The notes under the pieces: generated by a model
Databases searched by the model: none
The model's input: only the letters and a program-made list of their open reading frames with translations
Told to the model about the DNA's origin: nothing
Program-made: the position numbers and the translations under genes
Assembly (NCBI GenBank): GCA_008632985.1
Contig: QPGO01000058.1
Location: 186,001-250,000 of the forward strand
Direction: 5' to 3'
DNA from: Psammoneis japonica
Lineage: Eukaryota
DNA: 64,000 bases
Shown: positions 1 through 43,149 of the stretch, piece by piece
Layout: each line of letters starts with the position of its first letter
How positions within the stretch are numbered: position 1 is the stretch's first letter

Positions 1-1707
1 GACATTGATTGGGAAGATGGGGATAACGAGGGCGTGGGAGCACTTGTTACTGCTGAATCCCAGGCCCAGATGGGTCGTGCCAGTAGTTCTGGCTCATCAA
101 GAGCGAAAGATGATATCGACGACGAGTTTCAATGCTCAGAAAACTCAGATTCGCACTCGGCGACAGATGGAAATCCTGAGGGAGGTACGGAATCTCGAGC
201 TTTAGCTTCGAAGGATAATTCGCTTCGCTTGGGGATAGACGATGACGAGGAACGCGCAACGCAGCATTTTCTGGAAGTTGCAGATTCACGCAATGGCAAC
301 GACGAAAATGACTTTTTCCATCAGCAAGATGTGGATGAGACGACTGCCGCATTAGAGCACGCGCAGGCAACGGCATCTAACCTAACAGATTGGGCAGGTA
401 GAGCTTTTCGACGAGCAATCGCAAAACATGCTGAGGAAACAGGCGTCCATTCGAAAAGGGTGCTAGATTCAAGCAAGAAAGGCCAAAATCATCCGTCTAG
501 TGACACTGCCGTTTGCGACAAAGAAGGGTCAGAAGATGCCACCTCGCAGCAAAATACGTTCAAGCGACATGTGGCTATCGTGAATGATCAGTCTATAACT
601 GCAGAAATAAGCGAGAATCCTACAGACCTCGATTATGAGCCGGTGATTCAAGAATACTCGAGCACAAGAAATAACCCAGGCGAAGCTGACGCAGAATATC
701 GGAATTCAGTGGATCTTTTGCAGGGACAGATGGAATCGCTGCAAGAGGAGGAGCTCAAACTCAACGAAGATCTAAATAGACAAGAACGGGACATGGACAG
801 TGTAACGGATGAAATGAGACAGGAAATTGTTTCGCTAGTTCAGCTTTTCGGTATTCCATACGTTGAAGCACCAGCGGAGGCGGAAGCGCAGTGTGCCATG
901 CTCGAGCAGTTGGGGCTTGTGGATGGCATAGTTACAGAAGACAGTGATGTGTTTGTGTTTGGTGGAAAAAAGGTCTACAAGAACATATTCGACGATCAGA
1001 AATATGTTGAAGCGTATCTCGCACAAGACGCAGAACGGGATTTGGCTCTCGGTCGAAATGAATTTGTGGCTCTCGCCATGCTACTAGGCGGTGACTATAC
1101 GGACGGTGTCAAGGGTGTTGGTATCGTGAATGGCATGGAAGTGTTACAGGCGTTTGACGTATCGGTCGACATCAAATTGGGTCTAAACAAGTTCAAACAG
1201 TGGCTTGACGGCTTTGAACCCGATGAGGCTCTACAAGGCCCTTGCAAAGAGAAAGGAACATCGTCAGCGGAGAAGGTGTTTCGAGCAAAACATAAGAGTG
1301 CTCGAAACCGATGGACGGCACCAAAGTCTTTCCCCGCTGATAACGTTATAAACGCTTACAGAAACCCAGTGGTCGACAAGTCGCGCCAGCGATTTTCGTG
1401 GGGTGTACCCGACTTACAAAATCTCATTGTATTTTGTAATCGACAGATTGGCTGGAGCAAGGAGGAGACAGAGCAGCTTATCATACCAGTTCTGAAGAAG
1501 ATGGAGAGTGGATCACGACAGACTCGGATGGAATCTTTCTTCATGAAGTACGAAGATGACATTAAGTTTGCGAGAATCAACTCAAAGCGCCTTCGAGACG
1601 TTTTCCGAGGAATTCAAAGTTCGAGGGATGACACTGAGCGAGAGCAGTCAACGCAGGTAGATCTTGGCTCTTCCCGAGAAATTCGAAAGAAGCGAAAGAC
1701 GAACTAA
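1..1707 (+). CDS. XPG: XPG/Rad2 structure-specific endonuclease, C-terminal part (5' end lies outside the window)
   Basis: The frame is open from base 1 (DIDWEDG...). It has the XPG-I motif PYVEAPAEAEAQCA..LVDGIVTEDSDVFVFGG, H3TH LLGGDYTDGVKGVGIVNGMEVL, PIP box QTRMESFF and basic tail RKKRK. The long acidic spacer distinguishes it from FEN1. Confidence 0.93.
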   Translation, partial: DIDWEDGDNEGVGALVTAESQAQMGRASSSGSSRAKDDIDDEFQCSENSDSHSATDGNPEGGTESRALASKDNSLRLGIDDDEERATQHFLEVADSRNGNDENDFFHQQDVDETTAALEHAQATASNLTDWAGRAFRRAIAKHAEETGVHSKRVLDSSKKGQNHPSSDTAVCDKEGSEDATSQQNTFKRHVAIVNDQSITAEISENPTDLDYEPVIQEYSSTRNNPGEADAEYRNSVDLLQGQMESLQEEELKLNEDLNRQERDMDSVTDEMRQEIVSLVQLFGIPYVEAPAEAEAQCAMLEQLGLVDGIVTEDSDVFVFGGKKVYKNIFDDQKYVEAYLAQDAERDLALGRNEFVALAMLLGGDYTDGVKGVGIVNGMEVLQAFDVSVDIKLGLNKFKQWLDGFEPDEALQGPCKEKGTSSAEKVFRAKHKSARNRWTAPKSFPADNVINAYRNPVVDKSRQRFSWGVPDLQNLIVFCNRQIGWSKEETEQLIIPVLKKMESGSRQTRMESFFMKYEDDIKFARINSKRLRDVFRGIQSSRDDTEREQSTQVDLGSSREIRKKRKTN

Positions 1708-1780
1708 AGCAGTGATTACTCCTTGAGAAGTTATCAACGTATGGTAACCTCCCTGCGTCATGGTCGATGATTCATCTCCC

Positions 1781-3628
1781 TCACACCACCACAAAATCAT
1801 CAAGCTCTGGTGAACTATTCTTCGCAGTGTCGTTGTGAAGTTCTCTTCCAGACGATACCAAGACGAGTTGTCCGAGAAGAGCATCAAACTTGGCCAGATC
1901 AGGTCGATACGAATCAATGTACACCACCTTGTAGTCAATCTTGTTGGAAACCAGGCTGGCACGGAACGGAGGGTAACCTTTTCCGACGCATACAACAACT
2001 AGCGCGATTTCTGGGTTGACTTCCTTTTTGTACGCGGCAAGCAAACTCGAAAACATGTGTCCCTTGTGTGCGGTGTTTTCCTCCTCGTCTGTCACCAATA
2101 CAAACATGTCGATGTGCTCCTTCTTGTCATAGTATGGCCACAATGCCGCTGCCAATGAAGTACAGCCGTTTGCACGGATCTTGTCGCACACTTCAAGCGT
2201 CTCATCTACGCTCGATGGTTTTCGATGTGGCGAATCCACAAGCCCCGATGCAAAGAAGCTCAACTCCCCGTCAAAGCATGCGGACACCATGCTAGCAAAA
2301 ATGGTGGCGGCTTCAATTGCAAGCTGCATACTGGAAGACGCGTCACCAAAGACCGCCACTTTGTTCCCCTTCCTAAGGAAACCCTTCCAGTACGATGTGA
2401 GTTCCTCTAGACGATGAGCCGCGACCGGAAGAATATCAGTAGCGAGACTCAACCTCATCCTACGGAACGTGAGGATTCGTTCAAGCAGTTTGCCGTATGA
2501 CGTTGCTTTTGATTTCGCCATAGTGTTGCGCACGTCATCCTTGCCACTCGTCAGACGCTCTTGAAGGATAGCCTCACAGTTCCTCGAGACCTTGTAGAAT
2601 TCTTCGAAATACCAGATGACAGTTTCCAATGGGGCGTGTCGCGCAATAAGCTCCATGATTAGTGGTCTAGTCGCGAGGCTTTCCTGGAGACGAATGAACT
2701 GATAGCCGAGAAATACTTGCGGATACTCTTCGGCTAGTGCACGGAACTTCAACTCAACGTCGGCGTCGTCAGACTTCTTCACTAGCTCCTTCAGCGAATG
2801 CACGAAGTTGCTTTCCATAGAGCAGTCGCTCTGTCCTTCATGGTCAGTCCCGTCTTGTCGATGGACGTCGACAAGGAAGTAAGGAAGAGCAAAGTTGTTA
2901 GGACTGAAATGCACGATATCAGCAATTGTCTTCCAAATGGTGGGAGGCATGGCTAGCAACATGAACTCGAGGGAATCACTTGTGAGACCGGTCTTCGCCC
3001 AGTTTCTGATTTTTCTTGCAAGGGCTCCAGATACAGACGAAGACTCAATCAACTCCTTCACTGCACTGCTTTCATGAGCTTCCAAGCATCCCTTGTTGTC
3101 ACAACGTGCGGCTTCACACTCAAGTTCCGAAACAATTCCTTTATGCCTTCCTCTATATACGTCAACTTTTCCGCGTGTTCGCTTTCGGTTGTTCCTCTTG
3201 AGCTCTTGGCCTTCGCTGTCGACACACGCATCACCTCGAATCACATGAGGTCTTTCGCTCTCAATCCGCATGATTTTTCGATTCAGCTGACGAGCTTTAC
3301 GTGGTCTGTCTAGCAGGGTCAGTGCCTTGGCAATATCGGATGGCTCACAATGTTGCAGAAGCATTGAAAGGGCCTGATGCTCTGAGAGAATGTGTAGGGC
3401 TGCAATAATGCGGGCCCTGACTCCACTGGAGACCACGGCGAAGGTGCCGCTTTCACACAAGAAGTTGAGAGCCTTCATGTAGCTGTCCTTCTCTGTCATG
3501 AGGACGTGCAAATGCCCAGCTAGGCAAGGCGTGCCCTGGAAGAACACCTCGAATGTCTTCTTCATAGTCATGCTGTTTCTTTCTCGTTTTTCTGTAAAAT
3601 ACGTTGCAGTATTCACTTTGTGAGACAT
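1781..3628 (-). CDS. vWA (MIDAS) domain protein, possibly TROVE-like; the true start may be 3644 or 3693 across a frameshift
   Basis: 615-aa ORF with VAVFGDASSSM (DxSxS), ANGCTSLAAAL and VLVTDEEEN, ending in ELDDFVVV. The overlapping frame 3453..3644 reads like the real N-terminus. Confidence 0.75.
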   Translation of the reverse strand: MSHKVNTATYFTEKRERNSMTMKKTFEVFFQGTPCLAGHLHVLMTEKDSYMKALNFLCESGTFAVVSSGVRARIIAALHILSEHQALSMLLQHCEPSDIAKALTLLDRPRKARQLNRKIMRIESERPHVIRGDACVDSEGQELKRNNRKRTRGKVDVYRGRHKGIVSELECEAARCDNKGCLEAHESSAVKELIESSSVSGALARKIRNWAKTGLTSDSLEFMLLAMPPTIWKTIADIVHFSPNNFALPYFLVDVHRQDGTDHEGQSDCSMESNFVHSLKELVKKSDDADVELKFRALAEEYPQVFLGYQFIRLQESLATRPLIMELIARHAPLETVIWYFEEFYKVSRNCEAILQERLTSGKDDVRNTMAKSKATSYGKLLERILTFRRMRLSLATDILPVAAHRLEELTSYWKGFLRKGNKVAVFGDASSSMQLAIEAATIFASMVSACFDGELSFFASGLVDSPHRKPSSVDETLEVCDKIRANGCTSLAAALWPYYDKKEHIDMFVLVTDEEENTAHKGHMFSSLLAAYKKEVNPEIALVVVCVGKGYPPFRASLVSNKIDYKVVYIDSYRPDLAKFDALLGQLVLVSSGRELHNDTAKNSSPELDDFVVV

Positions 3629-4396
3629 AAAACAAAGCTTGCATCTCTTTTGCGCGAGACGTGCGTTTGAGTCGTGCTCGCCAGTCGTGTCATACGAACA
3701 CCCGCGAATTCCTTCTTCTGCGTTTTTTCCGGAAAAGCTAGGTTTTTGTATATGGACTTATCACCTTCTTTCAATCAAGAAACATTGACCTTGTGGGTTA
3801 CACCGAGTGTGCCATCTACAAGGTCGGTAGTTCGAGGTTGGAACGAGCCACGACTTCTTCAAGCCTTGTGTTTCATAGCCAATCGGTGTCTATCACCCAG
3901 GTTAGCTAGAATAGTAACACGGTAGTTCGAAAGAACTCTTGCTTCTGATTAGGACCAAACTCAATCGGGGAATAAAAGAAGTCAAACTCGATACTCGTTC
4001 TTTTGTTTCTTGTCCCTTGGAATCCTTTTTGCCAAGATAAAGAGAAGAGTGTGCTGGACTCTTCACTTCTCATGCGTTCGCATTGCAGAGCCGTTGAATC
4101 AAGTCTCCCTCTATGCAGGAAGTGTTTTAGCATTAAGCATACGATGACTCGGGAAGTCGATGTGGCAGCGCTAACTGCATGCTCTACTCTAGCTAGAGTC
4201 TACGAGCAGTGAGGCAATAAAAAGGAGATGTGGGATGTCGGCTGTCTCGAGCAAATAAAATGTGGGCGAGTGTGCTCATCTGGGATGTTCGAGCTCTGTG
4301 TCGCGCTGTCATCAGTGGGGGTGGGATGCTCGAGATGGTCTTCAGGGCTTTGAGGAGCCTCCTTCAGATGCTCTTAAAACACATCTGCAATTGGGA
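3617..4396. repeat. Copy A of a duplicated ~700-bp segment (5' end/promoter of the vWA gene)
   Basis: Aligns by eye with 9444-10149 and partly with 4405-4858, e.g. ttcgaggttggaacgagccacgacttcttcaagccttg at ~3831 and ~9659. Confidence 0.9.
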
Positions 4397-4404
4397 GACG
4401 GCTT

Positions 4405-4858
4405 TTTCAAGCCTTGTGTTTCACAGCCCATCGGTGTTTCTCACCCACCCAGGTTGGCCAGAACAATGACATGGCAGTTAGAAAGAAAACCAAACTCAAT
4501 CGGGAAACAAAAAAGTCAAACATGACACTTGTTCTTTTGTTTCTTGTCCCTTGGAAGCCCCTTTTGCCAAGATTAAATTTGCATTGCAGAGCCATTGAAT
4601 CAAGTCTCCCTCCATGCAGGAAGTGTTTTGGCACTGAGCACGCGATGACTCAGGAAGTCGATGTGGCAGCACCAACTGGCAAAAGGAGATGAGGGATGCC
4701 GGCTGTCTCTGGCAAACAAAATGTGGGCAAGTGTGCTCATCTGGGATGTTTGAGCTCTGTGTTGTGCTGTCATCAGTGGAGGTGGGATGCTTGAGATGGT
4801 CTTCAGGGCTTTGAGGAGCCTCCTTCAGATGTTCTTAAAACACATCTGCAATTGGGGG
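4405..4858. repeat. Copy C: tandem, more decayed partial duplicate of 3857-4396
   Basis: gagatggtcttcagggctttgaggagcctccttcagatg occurs at ~4332 and ~4793; gaagtcgatgtggcagc at ~4153 and ~4654. Confidence 0.9.
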
Positions 4859-7800
4859 ACATTGTGGAGCAAAGCGATGCTGATTCCCTGACTGTGCTGA
4901 AAGAAATGGCATCTCCAGACAGCCACTCAGACTGTTTGCACAATGTGCATTAATGTGCAAAGGAGACCCAGAGGACAAATGTTGCCAGAGTTGAGCTGGC
5001 AGGGGGGTTCTCATGATTTTCCATCCAGGAAAAGTCAAAGCAGTTCAGGCTGTCTCTGCAAGGCTGTCTCTTTGATGAGACTTCAAACTCCTTGGTGCAA
5101 AAAGATGGACATGGTCTGGACTGTGATTTTGCCACATGACCTGTGCAGAAAAAGACACATGCTGGCAACAGGAGGACATTCCCTGCTGACAGGGAACACA
5201 GTTGCAGAAGTTTGTGGTGGCCAGATTGTTGGTGCAAATGTGCAGGGCCGTGAGTGGAACAGCTCTGAAGTTTTCAAAGGCATGTTGTTGCTGCCCAAAC
5301 AAACAAAATTTCCAACCCCCTTTTTGCTGCATGTCAACATCAGCTCTGAGTGCAGCAACTTGATTTGGGGCTTTTCAGGTTTTTGAGTGTGAGAATTGCA
5401 AGCTGGGTCATGAAGGAAACCAATTTGGGAAAAAGTGACCAAAACCCAAAAGAGAGCTGAAAGTCTTTTCGTCTTGGCAACTGTGCCCTGCAATCATGTC
5501 AAGGCAGCATTTTGGACATTTGTTGCATCAAGAGCAGCAGATGAACAGGAGGCAGGCATGAGACCAGTTGAGGTGTGGCAGACAAAAGATTCTAGATTGC
5601 TTCAGAGACTGGGCTCAAGCAGCAGACACAGTTCCGATGCAGGTTAAAAAGGACATGACAAGCTGCAGCTCAGCCCTCCACCACCACAACTTGAGCTGGG
5701 AGTCTCTCAGGGGCAACTTGCTTCAATCAGGCATGGAGGAGGATCTGGCCAGGTTTGTTTTGGAAGACAAGAGGGGCATTCCTGACCACTTCCAGGAGGG
5801 ACATCCTTGGCGCAACTGCAGTGGCATCCCTCCTCCTTCCCAGTTCTTGGAGCAGCACTGCCTTTGCCCCTTTGATGGCATCAATGCCAACAAGGCAAGG
5901 AGATGCCGGCTCTGTCAAACACAAAGGAGCATGGTGCAATGACAGCCAGCAGCACTGAAAGGAAGAAATTGGAGAAGGACACAGCAGAGGATTTCCCAAG
6001 TGATGGCAAGGAGGAGGAGATGCCTTTTGCTGCTCTGGCTTTGTTTCCAGGCTGCTCATTTTTGTTCTCATTGATGAAATGTTGCCAGGCACTGGAGCTG
6101 AGACTTCTGAAGTGAGCAACTTTTTGCGTGGCTCCAGACAATGGCGCTGAAGAGGATTTGGAGGACATGGGTGGCCAGCGGAACTGGCCATCTTGCATGG
6201 TGCTTTTGTGGAGCTTTGATGGTGGGTTGTTGGCTGGTTTGCTGGCTTCTTTGAATGCAAACAAAAAATCTTCATGCTCTTTTAGAGATGATGGCAAGCA
6301 ATGTCAATGGGGATGCTCATGTTGTCAGGGCTTTTTTGGAATCAGCGGTGGTGCGTTGGATCTTTTGGTGTGGTTGTTGGCGCTTTTTGCCATTGCAACA
6401 AATGAAAATGGGGGTGACAGCCATTGACATAAAAAAGGACTCTTGGGGTGCAGAATGAGGTGCATGAGAGAGGTTGGTGCAGCAAAGCAATTGTGCCCAA
6501 AAAAGGAAATTTGCTGTTGCAAATCACTGGACTGGTTGGCAGAGACATTGATTGCTGTCATCAGTGCATGTTGTTGCCACAGAGCTGAAGAATGAAAGTG
6601 TGCATGTCAACTCACATCAAACCCAGGACATCTGCTTGCCACTGGGGGCATCTTCTGGTTTTGGAAGGCGGATGTTTTGCTGCTGAACCATGGTTGCTTG
6701 ATGGCGGCGCAGCTCAATGAAAAAGTCAATTAAAACCATGCTCAACAATTTTTCTTTTTCTTTTTGATGCTGACAAGTTGGGTCCTTCCTGTCAATGTCA
6801 CCAACAAATTGATTTGTTGCGGCACAACAAGGCATGGTGTGTGTGATCTGGCGGCCCACAGCGTGAGTGACTCCTCAATTCCAAACAAGACTGAAAGACC
6901 CGTTGTCTGCTCCTCAATCCCCAACAAGACTGAAAGACCAACCACTGCATCTTAAAAGGCATTTGCGGCTTTTTTGGCTTGAATTTGGCCAAACAGCTCA
7001 TGGTTTGCATGATTTTTCCTGAATTTCACCATGCTTCACTGTGGTGAAAACATCAAGCCACAAGTCTGAGATGGGCGATGTGGTCCATCTGTCAAATCTC
7101 ATCTGCTTTGCATTTGTTGTGCATCAAAGGTCACACATGCACCAAATGTTTGAGGACAGACCACTGCATTTTGGAGAAATGTCAAGATTGCCACAATCAT
7201 TGTGCTCCAATCATGGTGCCAGATGTGGCCTCGTTTTCATGCACAACTGGGTGTGAATGTGAACAATTTTTGCACTCAAAAACAAACACTGCAAATGACT
7301 GTGGGGTTTGCGCTTCTTGGAGAAGAAAGAGGACAAAACACAACTGGTTGCCAGGTTGTGCAACTGGAGCGCATGAAACATCCTCACCTGATTGGATCTT
7401 GAGGACAATCTGGCAATTCTGGAAGCTGTGACTGAACCATCCTCCCAAGGCTTCTTCTTTGAGCTTCTCTTCTGCTTTGCATTGCAAAAGTGGCACCGTG
7501 ACACAACATCTTTGAAAGAGGCAGGTTTTGCCCCACTGGGTCTGACTTCCTGTGACTTTCTCAGCAAAGCTTGCAATGTTCCACCAGAGTCCATTAAGTC
7601 AGGAGCCTCCAGCCTCAATTGCCACTGTGTTTGCCTCAAATCTGAGACATTTCAACCAAGGCCCAGGGCAGCAGCAACACCAGTCAAGAAACACACTGAT
7701 GACTTTGTTGTTGCAGCACTTGCAGAAAATTGTGGGCTTGTCTTTCTCATTCAACGCAAGCTTGAGCAGAGCACAGATTGTCTCAAGGCTGCACAAATGA

Positions 7801-9179
7801 CATTCCCTGACCTTCTGCTGCATCAGTCAAATGAAAGAAGGCTCGATGATGCTGCACTTGGTTGAAAAAACATGTGTGATTGCAAGATGGCAGATGCCAG
7901 CAAAAAGGTGGAACATGACAAATTGCAAGACTTGCTGGGCATGGAAACATGGGGAGATCACACAGTTTGTGTTGTTCACCTTGTTGTGGCATGTCCAGGC
8001 AAGGTTTTGAAGCTTGAAGACACCAGATGGATTGCAAAAACATCACGGCATTGTGGTGCTTCACAGAAGAGCTTGCAGCACTGCCAGAAAGAGTCCCTGA
8101 CACAAATGAAGAAAAGCATCCATTGTTGGTCATTGTTGAGGAGAAGCTGTTGCAAAACAGTTGCTGGGTGACCATGTCTTTGGCAGATTGAAAGAAGCAC
8201 TGATGATGTGCCAATGAGTCTGTCTGATCTTTTGCCTTGTGAGGGTGGCACTGGCATGGTCGATGACAAAGAAGAGTGAGAACCTTTTGGTCACAGGGTG
8301 CCAAATGTGTGTTGCTTGCAGATTCCTTGTCATCTCACTGTCTTTGGCTTGCCACTTGCTCCCTCAGTTGTCAGAGCCAGCTGCTTGCGCTGCAGTCAAC
8401 TCTTTTTTTTTGGGGGGGGGGGGGGGAGATCAACCAGAGCATCTCTGTTGACCTCTTTCATTCAAGTGGTCACCATGCTTGACTTTAGGATCCACATGAA
8501 ATTGAGTGACAAGGTTGGCAGCCTGGTGACACCTGGTTTTCTGGCCTGGAGTTGAGCTGGCTGCAAGGCTCTGGGTGAAAAAGGGCTTCTGACAGCCCAG
8601 ACATCATTGTGGGTGAATCACTTTCCACAGTCAATTGTGGAATGCATCCACACTGGCAGCCAAGATCATCATGTTTCAAATCACAAGGTCCTTGTCATCT
8701 GGCCTTCTGAAGACCAACATTTCTCAGGAAAGTTCGTTCCGGTTGACCAACCCAGCACCGCGCCGGCAGTGGTGTGTCACCGGTGCTTTGCAGGTCTGGC
8801 ATGAGGCAAATGGTGAGAATTTTTTTGGATTTTTGTTTTTTTCTGTTGTTGAGTTTGTTCAGTTGTCGTCACCAACAATTGCCTGCTGCTTGTTTGTGAA
8901 AGGTTGCTTTGGGCTGTGAACACTCCAGCCCCATCCTCCAAAATGGTTTCCTGATGCCAGAAAGCAACCCAAGAAAGAGACCCCACCAACAGTCACACCT
9001 GCCATCCCCATGGACCATTCCAGACATTCTGCTGTCACCAAGCAGAGTTGAGGAACCAGATTTCAAGTCTGCAATGAATGGCAACTCTGCTTCTTAAAAT
9101 GTTCATTTGTCAGGCAACAAGACAGGTCTCGCAAAATCAGCAATGTTGGAAGCACAGTTGTTGAGCACATCTGCAAAAG

Positions 9180-9275
9180 AATGCAGAAGATGACTGCATC
9201 AAGCTCCATGCTGTGACAATGGTTGATCCTGCAACCCAATGGTTTGAGATCATTGAAGTCCCAACAAAGACATCT
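9180..9275 (+). mobile_element. Ty3/Gypsy-type integrase core fragment
   Basis: Translates KLHAVTMVDPATQWFEIIEVPTK, matching the TMIDPATGWFEI pattern of Gypsy integrases. The fragment is short. Confidence 0.6.
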
Positions 9276-9443
9276 TGTGCAGAATCGCAATCAAAGACAT
9301 CCAAAAGGAGGTCGAATGCCGACAAAAAGGAGGTGCAAACACTGACCCTGTTGAGTCTGGCCATTTTGCTCTTCCACTCTTGTTCAAACACAAGCCAGCC
9401 ATTGCCATGGCACATGGCTGTCCAGCGGAGTGTGACCAATGGA

Positions 9444-10149
9444 TTTGTGAGTCCATGAGACAAGAACCAGCTTTGATGTGAGGTGTGCATTTGAGTTGTG
9501 CTCTTCAGTCGTGTCATGCTGACACCCTCGGCAAACTCCTCTTTCTGTGTGTTTTTCTGGAAGAACAAAGTTTTTGCACATGGACTTGTCACATTCTTTC
9601 AATCAAGAGTCATTGAACTTGTGAGTTGCATCAAGTGTGGCATCCACAAGGTTGGTGGTTCGAGGTTGGAACGAGCCACGACTTCTTCAAGCCTTGTTTT
9701 TCACAGCCTCCCTTTTGTCCAAGCAGGCTGGAAAAATGGCAACACAGCAGTTTGAAGGAACTCCTGCTTCTGATTGGGATCAAACTCAATCAGGGAATGA
9801 AAGGAGCAAAACTTGATGCTCATTCTTTTGTCTCCAGTCCCTGAATCCCCTTTTTGCCACAACAGAGAGAAAGAGAAGCGCGTGCTCTGCTCTTCTGAAA
9901 AGAACTTTGACCTTTGGGTCGGTGTTTTTGTCACTTTCGCATTGTAGAGCTGTTGAATCAAGTCTCTCGCTATGTGCTCCGAGGAAGCATTTTAGCATTA
10001 AGGATGCCTCGGAAAGTCGATGTGGCAGCGCTAACTACATGCTCTATTTTAGAGTCTACGAGTAAAATGTGGTCTGTCGAGCAAATAAAATGTGGGCGAG
10101 TGTGCTAATCTGTGATGTTCGAGCTCTTTCTCGCGCTATCATCAGTGGG
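9444..10149. repeat. Copy B of the duplicated segment; its right end is the upstream region of the TTL gene
   Basis: Direct repeat of 3617-4320. The minus strand reads MTRLKSTTQMHTS, against MTRLASTTQTHVS at 3693. Confidence 0.9.
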
Positions 10150-10342
10150 GTTCCAGGTTGCGGGATCGAATATCTTTTGCGCCGCCGCGGAACCCAAGCG
10201 GAACCAGAGAGCGCACTTCATGCCGTATGCCGTCGCTTGTTCGGGAAGCATGTTGCGATTGCGCTTTTGCATCCTGCTTATTGTGGTTGTTTCGTTTGCA
10301 TTTGCGATTGATCGCGGAGAGGAGTGCACTGAGCCCAACACA

Positions 10343-11233
10343 ATGTCCGACAAAGATCGCCCCACGGTAGAAGAACTCTTGTCTCGCAGCAAGGATGAGA
10401 TTGTCACTTTTTTGTCTGAGATTTATGAACACTCTGCTTGGGTGGCGGAAAAACTGACAGAGCAAGATTACTCAGGCGTCAAGACCGTGTCATCCTTGGC
10501 CAACGCTATGAAGGACATTGTGAACTCGTCGTCGAGGCAGCCCAAGATGGATTTGTTACGTGCTCATCCCGATCTGTGTGCTCGCGTCGGGCAGCTGGAG
10601 GACTTGACGGCATCCAGTCAAGAAGAGCAGTCCAGTGCCGGCTTACAATCACTTACTGACCAAGAAATGAAGAAATTTACTGACCTCAATACAAAGTACA
10701 GCTCCAAATTTGGTTTTCCTTTCATCCTGGCGGTCCGAAATTCCACGAAACGAACCGTTCTGGCGGCACTAGCGGGACGCGTCACCAACAGTGAGGAGGT
10801 GGAGTTTAATATCGCCTTGCAGCAGGTTCACAAGATCGCATGGATGAGACTCTTGGCTTCTATAAATACAGATGACGCAGCAGGTTTTCTCACCTGTCAT
10901 GTCTTGGATACCGCCAACGGTTGTCCTGCGGCAAACATGAGAATTACCCTTCACCGTTTATCCCCGACCAAGGAATTGATAGGAGAGTATACTACCAACG
11001 ACGACGGTCGCCTAGAAAATGGACCTGCCCTCAAGGGAAAGGATTTTATGGTTGGAACTTATGAATGGACCTTTTATGTTGCTGACTACTTTGCCTTTCG
11101 GGGAACCGAGACTGCAGGGACTCCCTTCTTGGATCAAGTGCCGCTTCGATTTGGGATCGATAACCCTGATGATCATTATCATGTGCCTCTCTTGGTTAGT
11201 CCTTGGAGCTTCTCCACTTACAGAGGAAGCTAA
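10343..11233 (+). CDS. TTL: Bifunctional OHCU decarboxylase / 5-hydroxyisourate hydrolase (allantoin synthase)
   Basis: OHCU decarboxylase motifs YEHSAWVAE, AHPDL, SQEEQSSAGL and KFGFPFILAVR; HIU hydrolase motifs LTCHVLDTANGCPA, TNDDGR, HYHVPLLVSPWSFSTYRGS (YRGS terminus). ATG at 10343. Confidence 0.95.
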   Translation: MSDKDRPTVEELLSRSKDEIVTFLSEIYEHSAWVAEKLTEQDYSGVKTVSSLANAMKDIVNSSSRQPKMDLLRAHPDLCARVGQLEDLTASSQEEQSSAGLQSLTDQEMKKFTDLNTKYSSKFGFPFILAVRNSTKRTVLAALAGRVTNSEEVEFNIALQQVHKIAWMRLLASINTDDAAGFLTCHVLDTANGCPAANMRITLHRLSPTKELIGEYTTNDDGRLENGPALKGKDFMVGTYEWTFYVADYFAFRGTETAGTPFLDQVPLRFGIDNPDDHYHVPLLVSPWSFSTYRGS

Positions 11234-11539
11234 GATTCGATTTACATAAATCTTTGGTCTTTGACTACTGTTTGTTTTAAATTTTTATCTGCCGGCATGC
11301 GCATCCTGCGGTTTCACCCACACCCTGAATCCTTCAACCGGTTGTTGCTTGTTGTCATCACGCACCCGCGATTATTCATTTTCAGGCCATCTGTGTTCAA
11401 GACCATGATCTGGTATTTCCTTTTGTTCGCGTCTTTTCCCTTCCGTTTCTCCAATTTTGGTGCCGTGTTGCTGTCATGTTGTGCGGTGCAGCACGCACGA
11501 AATTGGCTTGACATCTTCGCTGACATCTGCCCCACTCCC

Positions 11540-12960
11540 ACAAGCCAGCTGTCTTGAGCACACACAGTGATGGAGCATTGTCCAGTGTCAATGAAGGAGG
11601 TCACACTGCCTTGCCTGTGTGACTAAAGTTCTGGATTCTGGGGGGCAGTGGTGGTGGGCAGTCTGGGTCACACAGCTGGCCGCTCACTTGTGGGGCCCAG
11701 TTGAAAGCCCGTTGGACTTAAAGAAAGACCAGCCAGTGGTGTGCCAAAATGGTGCACCCAACAAAACCTTGCAACTGCACCAGCAGCAGACCCATTGTCA
11801 TTGTGTGTGTCAAAGCTTGCTTTGTTTTGGGAGGGGGGTGAGAGCAAGATTCACCCCCATCACATCTTTGAAAAATGCAGCCCATTTTTGTCAAGGGCAG
11901 CACTGGCACACTGCTCCACGAGCAACAAGACAGCAAGAAAATGACTGGTGTAAGAGAAGGTGGTTGGGGCAAGAGCTGTCACACTTGCAGCTGTGGTCAC
12001 ACCCCCATGCCTTTGCCTTGAAATTGCAGAGGCCTGGGGGAGCATTTGTCTCCAGAAAAAACCAAACCTGGAACAGAGAGAATGGGTTTGTGGCCAGAGC
12101 CTCATTGTGTGACCCATGATCTGCAGCTTGCCATGGTGGCTTGCAGCTGTCGCTGCTTGTTGAGAGGTTGGTTGTGGCCATTTTGGACTTGCTTTGGCCA
12201 CAGCCAAAGTGGCGGGCTTTTGCCTGCTTCCATCATTGTGATGCTCTCATCCTCTGCCAGATTGGCATTGTCCCACAATCTGTCAGCAGCAGCACCTTTT
12301 CCCAGCAATTGACCCCCCTGTGCACACCATGATGTGACCAAAGAACCAAGAAGGAAACCAAGAAATGGAGAGAGAGAGAGAGCAGCACTCTTGCTGCTGC
12401 ACCTGAGTGTCTCTGGGCTCTTTTGTGGTCTTGCTTGGCTGTCATGACAAGACAGCCTCTTCTGCAGCTGGCTGGCTGGAGACAAGCACCACACATCATC
12501 ACACCCAACACAGTTTTATTTGCATGCTTTTCAGCTTGCCAGCCTCCAGAAGGTGAGCCTTTCTTCTCTCCTCTTCCTTTTGTGTGCGCCCCGGTGTGTG
12601 TGGGGGGGGTCTCTTTCCTGTGGATTTGCTTGCCTTTTTTTGCCATCCTCTCCCTTTCTCTGTCTCCTCTAGATTGGGAGAGCATGGGTTTGTGGAAGCT
12701 GGCCCTCCCTCCTCATTCATCCTCCTCATCTGTGACAGCTGCTGCATGCTGTGCAAGAGCTCTCTTGTGTCTTTTCAGCATGTTTGTTCTGGCGGTCAAC
12801 ACCAAAAGACAACCCCCTCGCACTTTTGACATGGGAAATGTTGTGCGTGCAAGTTGATGCATGATTTTCACTGTAAGACCACTAATGTAAACCGAAAGCG
12901 TGCAATCACAGAGCAAAATTCAAAGTGGTGCATCATGTTCAATGAGTGTGTGCGGTTGGC
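11540..12960. other. TpA/CpG-depleted island 2 (unidentified decayed repeat)
   Basis: Abrupt loss of TA and CG with TG/CA excess. Overlapping ORFs are almost Tyr-free and no domain is recognisable. Confidence 0.8.
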
Positions 12961-13739: not shown

Positions 13740-14437
13740 ATGAACGTCCCTACTGTTTCTGTTCCAGATCTCTCCAAGCTCTTTGCTGGAGACGAGGAAG
13801 ACTGGGAAGTAGCCTCAGTCGCACCTACTGAGGTTTCCCAAGAGGATGACCTCCGCGAACCTCTTCAGTGGCAGTTTCACGGCCTTACGCTCTTTCTCGA
13901 ACTCCAAGAGTATAACGAGGACTTGACGAATGCCTGTCGCGACGCCTCAAAATTGTATGGAGTGGAGCAAATCCCTCAGCCTCATGCCACCGCTATTTAC
14001 GGCATGACCCACCTTTCTCAAGAAGAGGCGACTGCGCTGTTGCACAAGATTCCGTCTGTCATTGACAAGTGGCCAATCTTTCAAAAACCGGTTGGAGTCA
14101 AGCAGGACATTGCCCAAGTCGGCAGACCGGGACAAGTGTGCAACATCTCTTGGGCTGAATTGACTCTGGCCTCCAATGATGAGCACGAGGCGGCGCTGGA
14201 TGCAGTCTACGAGCTCTTTGGCATGGGCAAGCGCACTGGCCTTGGACGCCACACAACTCCATCGCCTACGATAATCCCGAAGATACTGTCTTGTCGCTAG
14301 TTGACATTATTCAGTATCTCGCGATGCACCCCACCCTCTTGACGAAGGAGCGTGGTGTTGCGGCTATATCCTTGTGGAGTACGGAGGGGAAAATGGGGCA
14401 ATGGGAATGTATTGATAGAGTTTACTTTGACGAATAG
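13740..14437 (+). CDS. 2H phosphoesterase / cyclic phosphodiesterase-like protein (one frameshift near 14240)
   Basis: Two HxT/S motifs: PHATAIYG and, after a 1-nt shift, WTPHNSIAYDNPE...SLWSTEG..QWECIDRVYFDE*. Confidence 0.75.
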
Positions 14438-15125
14438 AGATTGTGTTAGATTGTCCTGCTCTACACTGAGCAGGACTTTGTGGTTCCCAATGCAGCTTTC
14501 TATGTTCTTTTGTAGCCTAGTACTTGCCTAGCATAACGGCGTCTCGCATCCTTGACGATAATACTTGTCCAGAACGAGTACGTCAACATTGATCGAGCAA
14601 TCGGAAAGTATTGACACTGAGGTTACATAGACGAATAGAGATTGTCCTGCTCTACTACACTGAGCAGGGTTGTGTGGTTCCCAATACGGTACTGTGTACA
14701 GCTTTCTGCTTCTATGATTTTCTCTAGCCTGCCGGTAGTAGTTGTCTGCTTCTATCATGGAATGCATACAGTACGGCGTCTCTCAACCGTTGACGAGAAT
14801 AATTCTATCTTGGTCGAGAAAGGGATGCATTGATCGAGCAATGGGAATGTATTTATAGAGTTTCATAGAGTCTACTTTGTCGAACAGAGATTGTGCTCGA
14901 TTGTCCTTCCTGCTCTACACTGAGCAGGACTTTGTGGATCCCAATACAGCTTTCTATGATTATGTGTAGCCTCTACGTAGTAGTTGCTTGTTGCTTTAGT
15001 ACAACGGCGTCTGGGTATGCATTGATCGATTTTCATTATACACAATCTTGCTCTACAGTACACTGAGCGTGATATGTGGTCCTGTGTCCCATTACAACTT
15101 TCCGCGTTCTTTTTGTAGTCTAGAG
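14398..15125. repeat. About four degenerate tandem copies (200-240 bp) of the 3' end/UTR of the 2H gene
   Basis: gcaatgggaatgtatt...tcctgctctacactgagcaggactttgtgg recurs near 14398, 14598, 14838 and partly near 15050. Confidence 0.85.
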
Positions 15126-23846: not shown

Positions 23847-26800
23847 TTCTAACAGTAAGGATGGAAGCGTTTGATGTCGCTGAAAAGTAACAGGTGTAGC
23901 TTTCGGATGTGCGATGTGCGTTGCCATTTCGTATTTCGTCGATCGTGATGTCGCAGGTTTCGTGCCGTAGATAGCTTTTGGAAATTCATATTTTATTCAG
24001 ACTTGGATAGGCTATTTTTGGAAAACACGTATGTAGGGCCCTACTGTACGGTACCGTATGATGCAGTGCTCGTAGAGACATTGCATCTTTGCGATCCACC
24101 AGCTACCGGTAGCTCTAGCAGCTTGAGAGAGCAGATGCAAGCCAGGAAGGAGCTCCATTCCCCAAGATTTGCCATTCCATGGAATGATGACAGCGTCAGA
24201 ACAATTTTGTCAATGTTGTTTGACTGATTTTTTTCTTGAACCGCGCGCCAACTTCATTCTGCATTTTCACTCCCACCATCCGCCCCCCCACCAAGAACTC
24301 CCCCCTCACAAACACTTCGCTGAACTCGCTGCAGCTGCTTCGCTGAAGTCTTGAAAAGATCTGTCTGGTCAACGCCATTGCTCAAATGGGTTTGTGAATG
24401 TGATGACAACATTGGATTCATTGATGTGCTCATGCAAGGGCTGACAGCAACAGCTGGCTGCAGTGGCGGCACACACACAAGTTGAGTTAGACAACAAGTG
24501 GTGAGCCTTGGACACTGATGACATCATTTTGATTTTAAGCTCACTTGCCTTTTTACAAACACAAACTTTGACACAATGGGTGCTGGAAATCTGGCTGGTG
24601 GCTGGTGTGTGAAGAATCAAATGTGATTGTTTCATGTGCACTGCGTGCAGCTGTGTGTCTTTCCTTTTCTCCAAGCCAGATGCTTGTTTGATGTTGCTTC
24701 TGTGCCAGCTCTTCTTTGAAAAACAGCTCCATGCACACATGCTGCAGGGATTGTGTCAATTTCTTGGGAAATCCACATGAGCTTCAGTGCTCCCCCCAGT
24801 GCTCCTTCAAAGAATTTGTGTGCCAGAAACTCAGCTCTGCCAAATGGCCTGTGTTGCTGCTCAAGATGACAAGGGACATGCTCTAAAATGGCCTGTTGAA
24901 ATCTGTCCCTTGACAGACCCCAGGCACACCAAAAGACCATCTGCTGTGCTTGAGGACTTGCATGCCCATCTGTCGAGTCCAAACAGAACCCATCAATTGA
25001 CTCAGCTGCTCGAGTTAAAAAGCCTTCAGTCCTGCTTGCCACTCATCTCAATGACCAAGCAAGCAAGCCCAACTGAGTGCAGGCCTGATTCTCATCACCA
25101 GCCCATTTTTGTGTCTGGCCCAATAAATTCCTTCAGAATTGATTTTTTTCCCAAGTCAAAGGGTGGCTGCACACAAAACTTTTATTTTTTTATGTGCACT
25201 CACCTTTCGATTTTTGAAACGATAAAATTTGAAGGACTTTGATGTGCCAAATTGTGCAGAGAATTGAGCTCTCACATGATGGATTGCAGGTCACTTGTGG
25301 GACTGGAACAGGCCTGCACTCACAACCACAAGAGGGCTTTGCAGTCAAGATGGATGGATGGCAGCCAACTTTGAGCTGAAAATTTGACAAAAGTTGCTTC
25401 AAATGTGGTGGCGCCAACAAAAGTGAGATTTGCCCATTTGGCAAAAGCTGTCGCTGAGATTGCACTTTCCCAAAGGGTTGTCCTGGTGCTCAAAGAGAGA
25501 GCAGCAGAGCAGGCACAAGTCACAAGTGTCTTCTCTCATCATTGACACTTGTGAGGTCTCTCTTCACTTGTCAACCAATGCCACAGTGGACTGGTTTTGC
25601 TGAATCTGTCCCTTGCACCATGGCCCATTGTTGCAACCTTTCGCATCATGCTGCAGTGCATCTCTTGAAACTGCTCCTTTGTTGCTTCTTTTTTTGTTTC
25701 AAATCTTGGTTGGCATCTTGCAAATTTCTGCAGCATTTTTGGTCATGGAGTCCATGTTGTTGCCACATTTGCAAACTTTTTGCATGTCTGGCAAACAACG
25801 ACTGAAACAGAGTGAGTCACTTCAACAATGCCTGTTCCACAAAAAATGATCCTCAGCAAAATGCCGGCATGTGTTCAATGATTGCCTCCACAAATGTGAA
25901 AGCAGGAAGAGAAGCAATTCAATCTGAAGCCATTTTCTACAGCCCAAGTGGCTTGTGAATGTAACTTCAGAATTTCTCAATGACAAAAACTCTTGTGCCA
26001 TGCACTTCACTGCATGTGCGGCCAAATGTCAGCCCCCCTTTGAACCCAATTCAGCCCTGTTCTAACTGTTTCTTGCCCTTGGTGGAACTCATCTTGGCAT
26101 TGCTCTTCTTGGCATCTTTCTTCCCCACAGGTGTTTTGTTTTGCTGCTGCTCTTGCTCTTCTTTCCAGTCTTGCTTTTGTTGCTCTTCTTTCCACTGCTG
26201 TTGCTCTTCTTTCCAGTCTTGCTCTTGTCACCCTTTTTTCCACTGGCTGACATCACAGGATCCAATGGAAGAGCTGGTGAAATCAAAGGCTCAACACACT
26301 TGGGAAAGTTTTCTCTGTCCTCTGGCTTGAAAAGCAGAGTTTGCTCATCAACGGCTGGATCCAGTGTGAAGCAGCAGCCGTTGCAAGAGGTCAGGAAGAT
26401 CTTTCCATTTCCAAGCTTGAACAATCCTGTCACAAACAGTGTGTCATGATCCACAGAGACATTGAGAAGAGCCCCATTTGGGATGAACTTGGCTGGGCCC
26501 ATCAAGACAGTGAATCTGCCACCATCATTGGACCCAATGACAAATGTTTCCTTGGCACCTCACAGTGTGAGTTGCCCTCCTGGATTACAAAATCCAGTTC
26601 CAGGTTCAGAGCTCATCAATTTGAAGTTGCCACTTCCAACATTGCACTGTTGAAGGCATGCTCGCCAACATGGAAGTTGGCAATGGAGAAGCCAGGGCCA
26701 CTCAATGAGCAAATGACACTTTTGTGCACCAGGACATTGGCACATTTCTTGAAACAAGCACCAACAACAACTCCAATGGTTTCACCCTCGTTGTCACAAA

Positions 26801-29582
26801 CAACAACATCTTTTGAAAATTTGTTTGCATTGAACTGGTTGGTGACATTGATGCATTCTCCATCACATTCAATCCCTGTTGTTTCTTTCATGCCATTGGT
26901 TTGGCCATTGTTGTTTGTGTCACCACATTCTGCCAAGACAAATGCAGTTTGGATCAAACCAATGAATTCTTGGCAGGTTTGATGCACCAAATGCCAAGTT
27001 GGCACAGCGAATCTCTTCACCAACCTGTGCAACATTCCATCCATCATCATTGATGGACTTTCTAAACTGACCTGAGCCATCAGTGAAGCACTCGTCTGGG
27101 GTTGCTCCATCTTCTGCACCAAGCACATGAACTCTTCTTGAAAAGAACTCAGGCACCATGACAAGGGGGGCATTGGCAAGGAAGAGTGAAAAAGTTGACT
27201 GTTTCCAATTCTGTCTTCTTTGCAGCCTTGATTTCAATGCTTGCACTTTCCCATTCACCTGCCAACTTGATTGTGCTTTCAACATCATCCATGGATTTGG
27301 TGACAATTGCAACCTTGTTGTGCTCACTCACATGTGACAGCTTCAGCAAAGCCATGTTGAGGGGCTTCATGATGAAGTCAGTGATGTGGTTTCACATGCA
27401 TTTTGCTGTCAAAACTTTCACCCACTTTGATTGATTTGACAAGCCAGTGTGGAGCTTTTGCAACTAGATCATGGTTGAATCAAGCAGTCTGAATGGGCCC
27501 ACTGCATCACTGCATTGCACACCTCTGCCATCACTGCTGTTGTCATGTGCACAATCACACAATGTGGGAAAAAATGAGGAAGAATGTGATGATGCAGATG
27601 GCATTTCTGTGGTTGCTGCAATTCATTGTTCAAACAGCTTTGTGAACAAAGAAAAGTGGGTTGTTGGTGGTTGAAAAAAAATGTGAGCTCCTGTGCGTCA
27701 ACTGTGCGCACCAAGACTTGATCAAGACTCAAATGAATTTCATGCTCAATGCTCCATGGAAGCATGGGTGATGACTGTCTGTGCACTTCAATCAGGTCAT
27801 TTGACTCAGCACATCAATCATCAAAATAAAAACCTCTGGTGGGTCTGCTCACTCTGAAAGAAAAAGATGTTTGTGATGACCCCTGGTGCCACAGAGCTGG
27901 CATCACACAGATGTGCTTGTGCTTCTTCATGGCTTTACCATGCTGTGATTCAGGTCCCTGTCTTGTGTCTCTTCTGTGCACATCATTCTTGCACTGGCTC
28001 TCTCTTGCAACTTTTTCCTCCTCTTGGCTCAGCAGGATGGGCCACAGTGGTGGGTTTCTGTGTGTTGTCAAAAAACACCCAGTGCTGTGTTTGCGTTGAT
28101 GATTCATTGTCAGGCAAGCTCTTGAAAATGATTCAGCAGCAGTGTCTGTCAACACTGAGCACAGCAGCAGTGATGATGATGCAGCTCTCCATGATGAGAC
28201 TGTGTGCAACATGCTGGAGAGGTCAGAAAATGGACCATGCAACAGCCAAACAGTTGTGGGCAAAAGAGTGCAAGGTTCTTTGGTGGGTGCCAGGCATCAT
28301 TTTAAAACTGTGGTGGACAGGTTCAGGGTTGAATTTCTTGTCCGTGCAGCTCATTGTCACATGCACGTCTGAAAGTGGGGGAAATCTGAAGTTTGATGAC
28401 ATCTGGCTGTGGCAGCACTGCTGCTGGAGGTCAAAATGTGACCCACCACCAGCCAAGCAACTGCAGGACAAGGCTCTGATGAGAGTCTTTGGCAGGTGCC
28501 AGGCATCACTTTCAAATGATGGTGGTCAGTCACAGGGTCAATCTCTTGTCAGCTGGCCAGCTGGAAACCAGGCGCATCAGCAGTGCCAGCACCAACAACA
28601 CGTGGAAAGAGCTGTTGTTGGGAAAACGCAACTCAGTTTCTTCATTGGGGATGGCAACACCTTGACCAATTTGTCTGTTCATTGTGACATGTGAGAGCAG
28701 GTGTGCTGGAGAATTGTTCAAAAAAACCTCCTCCAGCAAGGCATGGAGCTGCTGTCAGAGTTGTCAGAAGTGCTGTGATTGTTGAGAAATGTGTTTGGAC
28801 TGACAAATGACTGAAACTCCAACCTGCAGCTGACATTGCAACACCAGTGATGAGCTGCAAAACAAAATGCAAAATCTGCATTTTAAATGCTGCCCGCTTC
28901 CACCACCCTGCACCTCTGGTTTGCATTGTGGTGAGCTCTCTCCTCTCCATTGACAACAAAATCTTCTGCTGTTGCTGAGACTGCCATGAAAAACCTGTTG
29001 GCAAGAACCTTCATGACTTGCAAAATCACAAGCAAAGTTGTGCCACTGCAAGAGTCATTTTTGCACCTGGTCCTGGGGCATGTGAAATTGATCCCACAGA
29101 ATTCTGTGTCCAATCTCTGCAGCAAAATTGTCAGGTGATGAATGTGTGTGTGTGTGTGATTGTCGACAGAAAAAGAGGCAATTTTGCACATGTGTGGACT
29201 GCTCTGCACACTTGAAGCACATCATTTTTGTTTTGCTCAGTCTTTTCTTCACAGACACAACAAAGAAGAAAATGCCTGCAGCTCATTTTTGTTCTTGTTG
29301 CAAATGGATGAAACAAAAACCTTTGGCTTTGAAAAACAGGAAGCATGAAACAATTGTGCAGAAGATCAAATGTGAAAATGTGCACACCCACAACATGTGG
29401 TGCACGACCAAAGAACTCTCATGTCACAGTGCAGGCCAGCAAAAGGTCCCACCCAGCCCCAGTTGTCATTGCTGCTCTTCAGCATTGCTGCACCTGTGAT
29501 GCCTTCAGCCAGATGACAAGATTGTGGCAGCAAACAAAGCAGAGTGCACAGCATCATCATTGTCATTGTGAGTTGTGGCATC

Positions 29583-29882
29583 TGTCTTGCACTCATCAAT
29601 CCACAACCAGCAGCACAGCCTTGCATCAGCTTGTGGTGCAGAACTCAGCATGCTTTTCACATGGTGACATGGTGCACTGTTTCTTGCTGCAAAATCCACA
29701 TGATTGCACATTTCATGCATGTTTGCCCCAAGTTGAGATTGTGGTGTCTGTCTTGCACTTGTTGGCCACAACCACAGGCTTGCATCAGCTTGTGCAGGAC
29801 TCAGCATGCTTTTCACATGGCCACATGGTGTGCTGCTTGCTGCAAAATCCACATGATTGCACATTTTGTGCACAGTTGCCCC
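29583..29882. repeat. Tandem duplication with a ~160-bp period
   Basis: cttgcatcagcttgtg...ctcagcatgcttttcacatgg...ctgcaaaatccacatgattgcacattt at ~29620 and ~29779. Confidence 0.85.
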
Positions 29883-32800: not shown

Positions 32801-34030
32801 ATTGTCAGAAACTGTGGATTCCAACAAGTCTTCTTCACTGAAAGGTCCTCCCTCCAAGCCACCCGCCTCTCTGCCAGTTGGCACCGCAAAAGGCCCGGTT
32901 GCGTCATCCCCCCCACCAGACCCCAATGACATGTCATGGCTGGACAAGTCTGCACTCCGCCAGCACTTTGACCCGTCCAAGTGTCAATCTGTTGCCTCAG
33001 ACGAAGTTGCTGCCCGTGTGTCATGCCTTCACATTGTTGACAAGGCAACCAACATGGAGCGTGTGCTTCACCATTCCACTGCCAACTTTTACCTTGCAGA
33101 CAACCTCAGGGAAAACTGGCACATTTTTTCCAACAAATCCCCCACAAGCAATCCCAATGCCGCATCTCGAGTCAGAGCTGAGCACCCTCATCACCTGGAT
33201 CACTGTTCGGACGAACTCCCTGTTGCCTGACAAGCAAACTCTCTTTACAAAGGGCACTTTGGTTGCCTTTGTGCATGCATTCCTGCCCTTTTGCTTTTCG
33301 TTTTGTTGAAGGGCAAGTCAGAGGTCAAACGCAACGGATTGCTTGCAGTTGAGAAGGAAGACAGATGATGGATCAAGATTGGCTGTGCTGGGCGGTCATG
33401 TCACCCAAAGGAGCTTGGCTCTACAAAATCCACCAGACCCAAGGCCACACATGGTCTTGATGTTTTTGATCCTGACAAAAACTTTGACAAGAAAGAGTCA
33501 TCCAAAATCAAGGCCATGGTGGCTGACATTCTCGACTCGATTCAGCTTTGCAAAAATGAGGTCAAGCTTTGGAAGCTTGGCAATCCTCCACCATTCAACT
33601 GGTTGCTTCGGTGCAATGCGTGCTCAAAAGCATTTTGCGACAAAATGGGTTGTCTACATTTCCATTGGGAGGACATCACCATGCAGGGATTGTGCATGTC
33701 CCATGGTCAATTTTGTGATGGACACTGTGACGAAAAAAACTGCACCTGGCTTTGCCATCAGAAAACAGCGGCCAGTTGTTTCTTTGTCATGGATGCCTTC
33801 GGCGATGCATGGTCCTTCAAGGCAGTCACCACCAGCAGAAGTCCCACTGGTCAATGCTGCGACAACAAGTGTGACATGAAGCCGATGCTGACTCGGATGC
33901 ACCACAACCGAACTCAGCTTGACTTTGTGCTTGAAGACATGGACCTCCAACATGATGGTCCAACCCATCCTGACTTGGTGCTGACTGCCCGCACATTCAA
34001 AAATTTCTTGCTGGATGACAGCTGGCCATG

Positions 34031-37400: not shown

Positions 37401-37550
37401 AAAATGCACAAAGAGGGGAGGCACTGTCACAATCAGAGTGTCAAGAAAGAGGTTTGAAATTTTGCAAAGCTGGTCTTCCTCTGAAGACCTGTTGCACTGC
37501 ACAATTGCAGAAACTTTGTGCCTTTGCCACAACACATTAAGTCAAGAGCC

Positions 37551-42960: not shown

Positions 42961-43149
42961 GATGGCAGCAGCATGCATGTTCCACAGGACGACAGCCACT
43001 GGAGCTGGTTTGACACAGATGGGAGGTGGACTCTGCTTCTTGCAGCAATGGATTTGGTGGGGGCAAGGTGGAAATCCATGCCACCTTGGGATGTGTGGCG
43101 GGGATCCGTCCCCCCCATTGCAGCAAACATTTGCCCAGCCAAATGCCGA

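Follow-up and report, generated by a model that had tools for sequence, protein, structure and literature searches.

Background

In fungi, silenced repeats undergo context-specific hypermutation in the form of repeat-induced point mutation (RIP), and methylated genomes show such hypermutation for CpG. Fungal RIP is set off by duplication, mutates both members of a repeat and involves an enzyme of the RID/DNMT4 type that acts before meiosis. In Neurospora, the transitions known from RIP are all C:G to T:A, most of them at CpA, and RIP can leak beyond the duplication. Adenine is deaminated by ADAR in double-stranded RNA and by TadA/ADAT at the U33-A34 step of tRNA. Here we describe a stretch of 64,000 nucleotides deposited under Psammoneis japonica (contig QPGO01000058.1, positions 186,001 to 250,000; hereafter the window), in which the dinucleotides CG and TA have both been converted to TG or CA in distinct islands, and in which a repeated segment lying across the edges of one such island (about 4332-9879) indicates that conversion follows position and not copy number.

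For basidiomycetes, a hypermutation of CpG that resembles RIP is described in Horns et al. (2012, PMC3318451), and, according to PMC9998398, diatom transposons are CG-methylated through DNMT5a, the loss of which in Phaeodactylum removes DNA methylation and de-represses transposons. For the joint conversion of CG and TA, no description was found in the full-text literature, in diatoms or elsewhere, supplements and closed-access papers being outside the scope of the search; the same literature gave no process that combines a loss of TA exceeding that of CG, a three-base rule, sparing of TTAA and step-like borders.

Position-bounded conversion of CG and TA

Four islands, at about 4332-9879, 11519-12874, 24117-51656 and 55237-60273, together make up about 60% of the window. 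Inside them CG and TA are nearly gone, TG/CA is raised about 1.6-fold and the G+C content is the same as elsewhere; the island to non-island ratios are 0.25 for CG, 0.09 for TA and 1.56 for TG/CA, TA thus being lost more completely than CG. Island 1 lies between two divergent genes, one vWA-like and the other, TTL, transthyretin-like. An earlier, sequence-only reading of this DNA had claimed that a single segment flanks both sides of this island, and a segment of about 680 bp is indeed present on both sides of an insert of about 4.7 kb between the two genes. Copy A (3647-4320, 674 bp) and copy B (9471-10150, 680 bp) are direct repeats with a start-to-start spacing of 5824 bp, and BLAST aligns them over 720 columns at 74% identity including gaps. 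Copy C (4393-4858, 466 bp) is a tandem duplicate of A 3845-4393 that was converted in place. For the comparisons, A was divided into A-left (3647-4045, 42 CG/TA sites) and A-right (4046-4320, 25 sites), and B into B-left (9471-9870), inside the island, and B-right (9871-10150), outside it. No further copy of the segment occurs elsewhere in the 64-kb window.

Conversion was scored where one copy has CG or TA and the other has TG or CA at the aligned site. Between A and C (457 columns), A is intact and C converted at 28 positions and the reverse is found at none, which bears out the claim that C is converted throughout; C has lost 16 of 17 TA sites, and of its 21 CG sites 13 are converted (62%), two are lost otherwise and six are kept. 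Between A-left and B-left (393 columns), there are 31 positions with CG or TA in A and TG or CA in B, again none in the reverse direction, alongside 50 other differences (12.7%). Along B, 30 of the 34 testable sites up to position 9863 (A 3653-4038) are converted and four, all CG, are kept, whereas from 9879 onwards only one of 29 is converted relative to A and 28 are kept (left versus right, Fisher p=1.7e-12). B-left is as fully converted as the deep island. B had been described correctly as converted on its left and intact on its right. The density of CG/TA sites per 100 bp reflects the same division, with 10.5 in A-left, 9.1 in A-right and 10 in B-right (28 sites), against 1.25 in B-left and 2.1 in C; the values for A (9-10.5) equal those of non-island DNA. 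A second pair of copies behaves likewise, the member inside island 4 (59513-59686) having 13 converted sites and the member about 140 bp outside its edge (60410-60588) one. It is thus position that decides and not the number of copies, as the sequence-only reading had proposed, with 0 versus 28 conversions in A and C and 1 versus 13 in the pair at island 4.

As a separate observation on this second pair, the start (5' end) of an open reading frame (ORF) at 60500-61120 recurs within island 4, some 900 bp away, as the 59513-59686 copy, and the frame starts with a hydrophobic stretch that is signal-peptide-like by eye.

The state of copy A needs closer attention, since A had been described as the mirror image of B, with CG and TA kept at its left end and converted at its right. 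The first half of this description stands, A-left being judged intact solely by its normal site density (10.5 per 100 bp), as losses in A-left are invisible in the comparison with B-left, itself converted. The second half was not confirmed. The two quoted sites are present (4176 TG versus 10036 TA, and 4307 TG versus 10137 TA), and the comparison of A-right with B-right (240 columns) gives four TA-type sites at which A has TG or CA and one CG-type site at which B does, together with 35 other differences (14.6%), 20 of them transitions. This background transition divergence of 8.3% (20/240 columns) predicts about five conversion-like differences among the roughly 30 sites, and five candidates are seen in A-right (4050, 4086, 4176, 4207 and 4307), so that the apparent conversions of A are indistinguishable from background. 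TA-type sites in A-right number four against an expectation of 1.25, a marginal excess (p=0.04), and three of the five sites, being shared with C, give no direction of change. With B taken as the outgroup to polarise the changes, 19 process changes and 18 others fall on the C lineage; five appear to fall on that of A, and four of these turn out to be parallel conversions of C and B. A is therefore not measurably converted, and the supposed reciprocal pattern is one-sided.

Nor do the changes fade towards the edges in a gradient, as had been suggested. In B-left conversion stops within 16 bp, between the last converted site at 9863 and the first kept site at 9879. A Poisson change-point analysis places the edges of island 1 at 4332 (support 4305-4357) and 9879 (support 9854-9938), with a step on each side from 9.0 informative sites per 100 bp outside to 0.9-1.0 inside. 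All eight island borders, near the coordinates given above, are such steps: informative sites per 100 bp number 8.4-11.6 on the outer side and 0.9-2.3 on the inner, and the support intervals span 31-139 bp. Their distance from the nearest stop-to-stop open frames is roughly 120-800 bp, and they occur at 5' and 3' gene ends alike; two of them are 3' of genes, one following the TTL stop at 11233 (edge 11519) and the other next to an ORF end at 54994 (edge 55237).

Sequence rule of the conversion

In each comparison between copies, 15-16 of the 28-31 events are changes of TA to TG or CA, and the cytosine events are at CG. The tetranucleotide TTAA is not depleted in the islands (ratio 1.06; 47 sites in 38.9 kb of island versus 27 in 23.6 kb outside), and this sparing holds in each of the four islands, whereas the other 15 NTAN words have ratios of 0.004-0.23, that is, a 4- to 250-fold depletion, with ATAC, GTAC and ATAT at 0.004-0.027. 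The counts of NTAN and NCGN words are well described by an additive model with rates per strand. In this model the A of 5'-TA-x changes at relative rates of about 2.5 where x is T, 2.3 where it is C, 1.5 where it is G and about 0 where it is A, and for the C of CG the rate after A or T is about twice that after G or C. The rule for TA is thus 5'-TA[T/C/G] to TG on each strand, with TAA immune, and TTAA is spared because TAA is immune. The polarised events from three copy comparisons are in keeping with this rule, TTAB giving TG five times and CA never, and VTAA giving CA five times and TG twice (p=0.028; B in such words stands for T, C or G and V for any base but T). One TTAA is converted among these events, so the immunity is not absolute. 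A strand-specific process was considered and rejected, as TG and CA are symmetric in the islands and no strand bias was found.

Conversion is graded, since TA is nearly gone and CG is 62% converted in C, and since a long terminal repeat (LTR)-like pair in island 3 is partly converted in both of its copies; slow accumulation therefore fits better than a single burst. One consequence for annotation was also noted. All six frames of the islands, for example at 4860-9470, hold long ORFs with a high content of Cys, His, Gln and Trp. These are spurious, because TAA and TAG are almost absent and TGA is the sole remaining stop, and gene finders would over-call genes there.

History of the repeat copies

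A and C have in common an extension of 73 bp (4321-4393), which is absent from B and forms the left end of the insert. Because C carries the right part of A together with these 73 bp of the insert, the original order was A, insert and B, and a later tandem duplication of 548 bp spanned the junction of A and the insert. The extension contains one CG and one TA, the latter within TTAA, and it was already poor in CG and TA at the time of the duplication, unlike the part of C derived from A. At the ten sites converted in both C and B-left, the outcome is the same in only three, and the two were therefore converted independently and in place; the possibility that C was copied from B-left was rejected on account of the seven sites at which the outcomes differ.

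A conserved core of about 40 bp (3835-3880 in A, 9663-9708 in B and 4393-4428 in C) is distinguished by CG sites that survive in the converted copies, and three of the four CG kept by B-left fall in it, at 9661-9679. A contig of 2336 nt from a public run starts with 30 bases identical to this core. No match to the core was found in Rfam or in a tRNA search, and it is thus not a known RNA.

The contigs of the public run also include diverged, unconverted relatives of A-left, which may be alleles, homeologues or paralogues, with at least three more relatives of the piece at 3940-4009 (depth 262/317 at 3973). One of them (contig record 10, 3538-3714, 24 differences) contains a relative, itself diverged, of the vWA-like gene's 5' end, and this relative continues into A-left. 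A-left has accordingly adjoined the gene for a long time, and this continuity favours A-left as native upstream sequence.

Proposed explanation

Sequence was converted where it lay and within limits set by position; the conversion treats the two strands alike and depends on sequence context. Sequence inside the island is converted and the same sequence just outside it is not, which argues for targeting by position rather than by repeat pairing. The explanation that we favour, and regard as moderately probable as a whole, begins with two old direct copies, A and B, flanking about 4.7 kb of decayed and partly transposon-derived DNA between the vWA-like gene and TTL. A later tandem duplication put C, a copy of the right part of A, inside that block. 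The domain 4332-9879 has undergone context-specific transitions on both strands, C to T at CG and A to G at 5'-TA before T, C or G, in which everything inside the domain was converted, the single-copy flank included, and identical sequence a few dozen bases outside was spared. The domain would most likely be silenced, cytosine-methylated chromatin, seeded on transposon-like DNA, with the chromatin of the adjacent genes halting its spread. The changes at CG would come from deamination of 5-methylcytosine, and those at TA would need a second activity, the simplest candidate for which may be hydrolytic deamination of adenine to inosine at TAB in double-stranded DNA; alternatively, a thymine modification that mispairs with G could be responsible.

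In a more far-reaching form, which we regard as somewhat less likely than not, this could be a diatom hypermutation system that erases transposon-like DNA by position, in silenced domains with borders sharp nearly to the base pair, by decay of methyl-CpG together with an enzymatic A-to-G (or T-to-C) change on double-stranded DNA at 5'-TA[T/C/G], with TTAA spared. Were this true, adenine editing of double-strand DNA would exist in nature, and the system would count as genome defence of a new kind.

Several observations weigh against this explanation. Since the split of A and C, about one change has occurred in A versus 18 non-process changes in C (p=8e-5). The sequence-only reading was to count as refuted if purifying selection affecting all substitution types equally explained the pattern, and it does not pass this check cleanly, the non-process changes being reduced in A as well. 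The stasis of A also fits strong constraint, or gene conversion, acting on A. The transposon origin of the insert is suggested by a weak homology (E=9e-4) and by contig depth, the Pfam searches being empty. To our knowledge, no enzyme deaminates adenine in double-stranded DNA at TAB. Lastly, the left edge of island 1 coincides with the junction of A and the insert (4320-4332), and on the right the island takes in 400 bp of B; in part, then, the borders may reflect how the block came about, and not chromatin alone.

Origin of the repeats and the insert

The insert (4859-9470) is degraded DNA of about 4.7 kb, nearly free of CG and TA and partly transposon-like. It holds a high-copy repeat at about 6960-7300, where the contig word depth is 1474-4415 versus about 55-150 elsewhere, and which belongs to a family of up to 48 variant contigs. 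In 6 of the 14 variant rows listed, the window has CA or TG where most other copies have CG or TA; because most other copies of the family keep CG and TA, high copy number alone does not bring conversion. An integrase-like remnant was recognised at about 9180-9300 on the plus strand. A HMMER search of the frame 8940-9470 against 1.84 billion representatives gave two hits, one (P0121) being repetitive junk and the other (P0122) a fragment of 127 amino acids, to which the remnant matches over 32 amino acids at 56% identity (E=9e-4). P0122 is without a Pfam family; from its motif we take it to be the start of a retroelement integrase core. Pfam recognised none of 63 ORFs of island 1 and none of the six read-through frames of 4860-9470, and it gave no hit in the six read-through frames of 24001-38000 or of 41800-46500. 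Within the insert a T run followed by a long G run was noted at 8397-8436, where the public-run contigs break.

These features have a bearing on what A and B are. The sequence-only reading took them for duplicates of an ancestral bidirectional intergenic region between the vWA-like gene and TTL, which they may be. Alternatively, they could be the LTRs of an old LTR retrotransposon between the two genes, with the insert as its decayed interior, in which case the duplication of a promoter would be illusory and the mutation would still be bound to position. We regard this as doubtful, although it is the alternative that fares best. Direct repeats of 674 and 680 bp flank an interior and lie 5.8 kb apart, the integrase-like remnant is situated between them, the piece at 3940-4009 has its further relatives in the public-run contigs, and another LTR-like pair is present in island 3. 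On the other hand, the Pfam searches just described found no gag-pol domains, and clear primer-binding sites and polypurine sites are missing. Clear TG...CA ends are not seen either, and the bases before A (GCATCT) do not match those after B (TTCCAG) as a target-site duplication would, but divergence has blurred the ends of the repeats. The integrase start abuts B, and a copia-type order would need the loss of about 3 kb. The relative of the vWA-like 5' end, moreover, extends into A-left. Taken together, segmental duplication of native sequence has about an even chance as the origin of A and B, an LTR pair is a good deal less probable, and the rest falls to something else.

The LTR-like pair of island 3 consists of direct repeats of 196 bp (41824-42019 and 46261-46456, 89% identity) around an interior of 4.2 kb (42020-46260) with higher G+C, and the element looks younger because both repeats are only partly converted. 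On the minus strand of 42020-46260 there is a reverse-transcriptase-like motif by eye; the reverse-transcriptase-like piece of 298 amino acids has no Pfam hit, and an Atlas search with its stop-free part of 128 amino acids scored no higher than 0.86, which is at most a lead.

Other explanations

It could also be argued that the process acts across the whole interval, and that the promoter sequence in A and B-right stays unchanged through purifying selection or through gene conversion, with an intact allele or paralogue as the donor. The reduction of all substitution types in A (about 1 versus 18 in C since their split) is what such a history would leave, and start codons follow A and B-right at distances of 70-750 bp. 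However, about 67 CG/TA sites stand at normal density over the 674 bp of A and nearly each of them would need defending; A-right and B-right differ at 14.6% of columns outside the process and are therefore not strongly constrained in the long term; and all eight borders are steps, two of them 3' of genes. For these reasons constraint alone is unlikely as the cause of the intactness of A, and we consider the explanation improbable also in its wider form.

Slightly less credible still is a RIP-like, repeat-triggered burst, premeiotic or similar, that hit the repeated insert and leaked a few hundred bases into its flanks. The insert does hold a member of a high-copy family, the converted flanks are similar in length (400 bp in B-left and 466 bp in C), and diatoms carry DNMT4 enzymes related to fungal RID (PMC9998398). 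Against this, A has 0 conversions to the 28 of C despite a tandem partner identical over 548 bp, and most members of the high-copy family keep CG and TA. Half of the events, moreover, are A:T to G:C at TA, which RIP is not known to make. The grading of conversion by age and context fits slow accumulation, and the faster change of CG after A or T resembles the spontaneous decay of 5-methylcytosine.

Modified bases can give systematic miscalls on some sequencing platforms, but a sequencing or assembly artefact is hardly credible, since the conversions are fixed differences between paralogous copies in one assembly, the trinucleotide rule is too regular for miscalls, and the public-run contigs match letter for letter. 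The contigs are identical to the island letters (records 2-8, with 0-2 other letters and a word depth of 55-71), although this match is not independent support, because the run may be the window's own sample.

Two further candidates were tried. A retro-copied RNA hyperedited by ADAR does not fit, as C was converted in place after a tandem duplication of DNA and CG sites change too, and the signatures of ADAR and APOBEC were rejected because their contexts do not fit.

Genomic setting

The window is diatom nuclear DNA, the diatom being probably pennate, and has long, intron-poor ORFs; the assignment to diatom nuclear DNA was made because the best relatives of the TTL protein are diatom proteins, with identity of up to 73%. 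TTL (10220-11233, plus strand) encodes a predicted fusion of OHCU decarboxylase and HIUase (transthyretin-like), recognised by Pfam as PF09349 (1.4e-39) and PF00576 (2.1e-33). The vWA-like gene (1784-3574, minus strand) is an open frame with an ATG near 3572, divergent from TTL; it matches the Pfam family vWA_Ro60 at E=1.6e-5 and 25.3 bits, below the cut-off of 27.7 bits, and the name vWA is weak for that reason.

Among 80 metagenome loci fetched for their relatives of TTL, which are distant, none has a vWA-like or XPG neighbour and none has a kilobase free of CG and TA; loci that are both diatom-like and flanked are few in this set (L007, L072), which thus has little bearing on close relatives. 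In run X2 (recorded as "DNA?"), depth is found in 12 of 30 bins, in gene regions and in the high-copy repeat, and no conclusion on expression was drawn. Diverged tandem repeats of about 200-440 bp were noted at 14367-15045, in normal TA-rich DNA outside the islands.

Comparison with known systems

The duplicated copies constitute a natural experiment that separates the location of a sequence from its copy count, and position wins. Should the TA component be the work of an enzyme, that enzyme would naturally turn adenine into guanine on double-stranded DNA, and it would be relevant to genome defence, to the variation of mutation rate along chromosomes and to base-editing tools.

Returning to position-bound conversion in a putatively silenced domain, its likeness to RIP lies in dense, context-specific transitions that form kilobase tracts in transposon-like DNA of a eukaryotic nuclear genome. 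Unlike in RIP, one member of a tandem duplicate is fully spared here (28 versus 0, and 13 versus 1 in the pair at island 4), A-to-G at TA accounts for about half of the events, cytosine is changed at CG and not at CA, TTAA is immune, and the edges are steps tied to position.

The CpG decay of methylated transposons is matched in the change of CG to TG or CA within blocks that would be silenced, in the slower change next to GC-rich flanks and in the sparing of neighbouring genes. Such decay leaves TA, however, and here the loss of TA exceeds that of CG (0.09 versus 0.25) and follows a three-base rule of its own.

With the enzymes that convert adenine to inosine the process would share the deamination of adenine, read as G, and the A-after-U context of TadA/ADAT matches the requirement for TA. 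Those enzymes act on RNA, whereas here unique genomic flank DNA was changed in place, as copy C illustrates, and in contrast to the preference of ADAR the 3' neighbour most favoured is T, followed by C and next by G, and A ranks far below them. What is new is the TA component, to which no counterpart is known, with its specific per-strand rule and the sparing of TTAA. As a whole, the process looks like repeat or heterochromatin hypermutation to which a highly specific TA component is joined.

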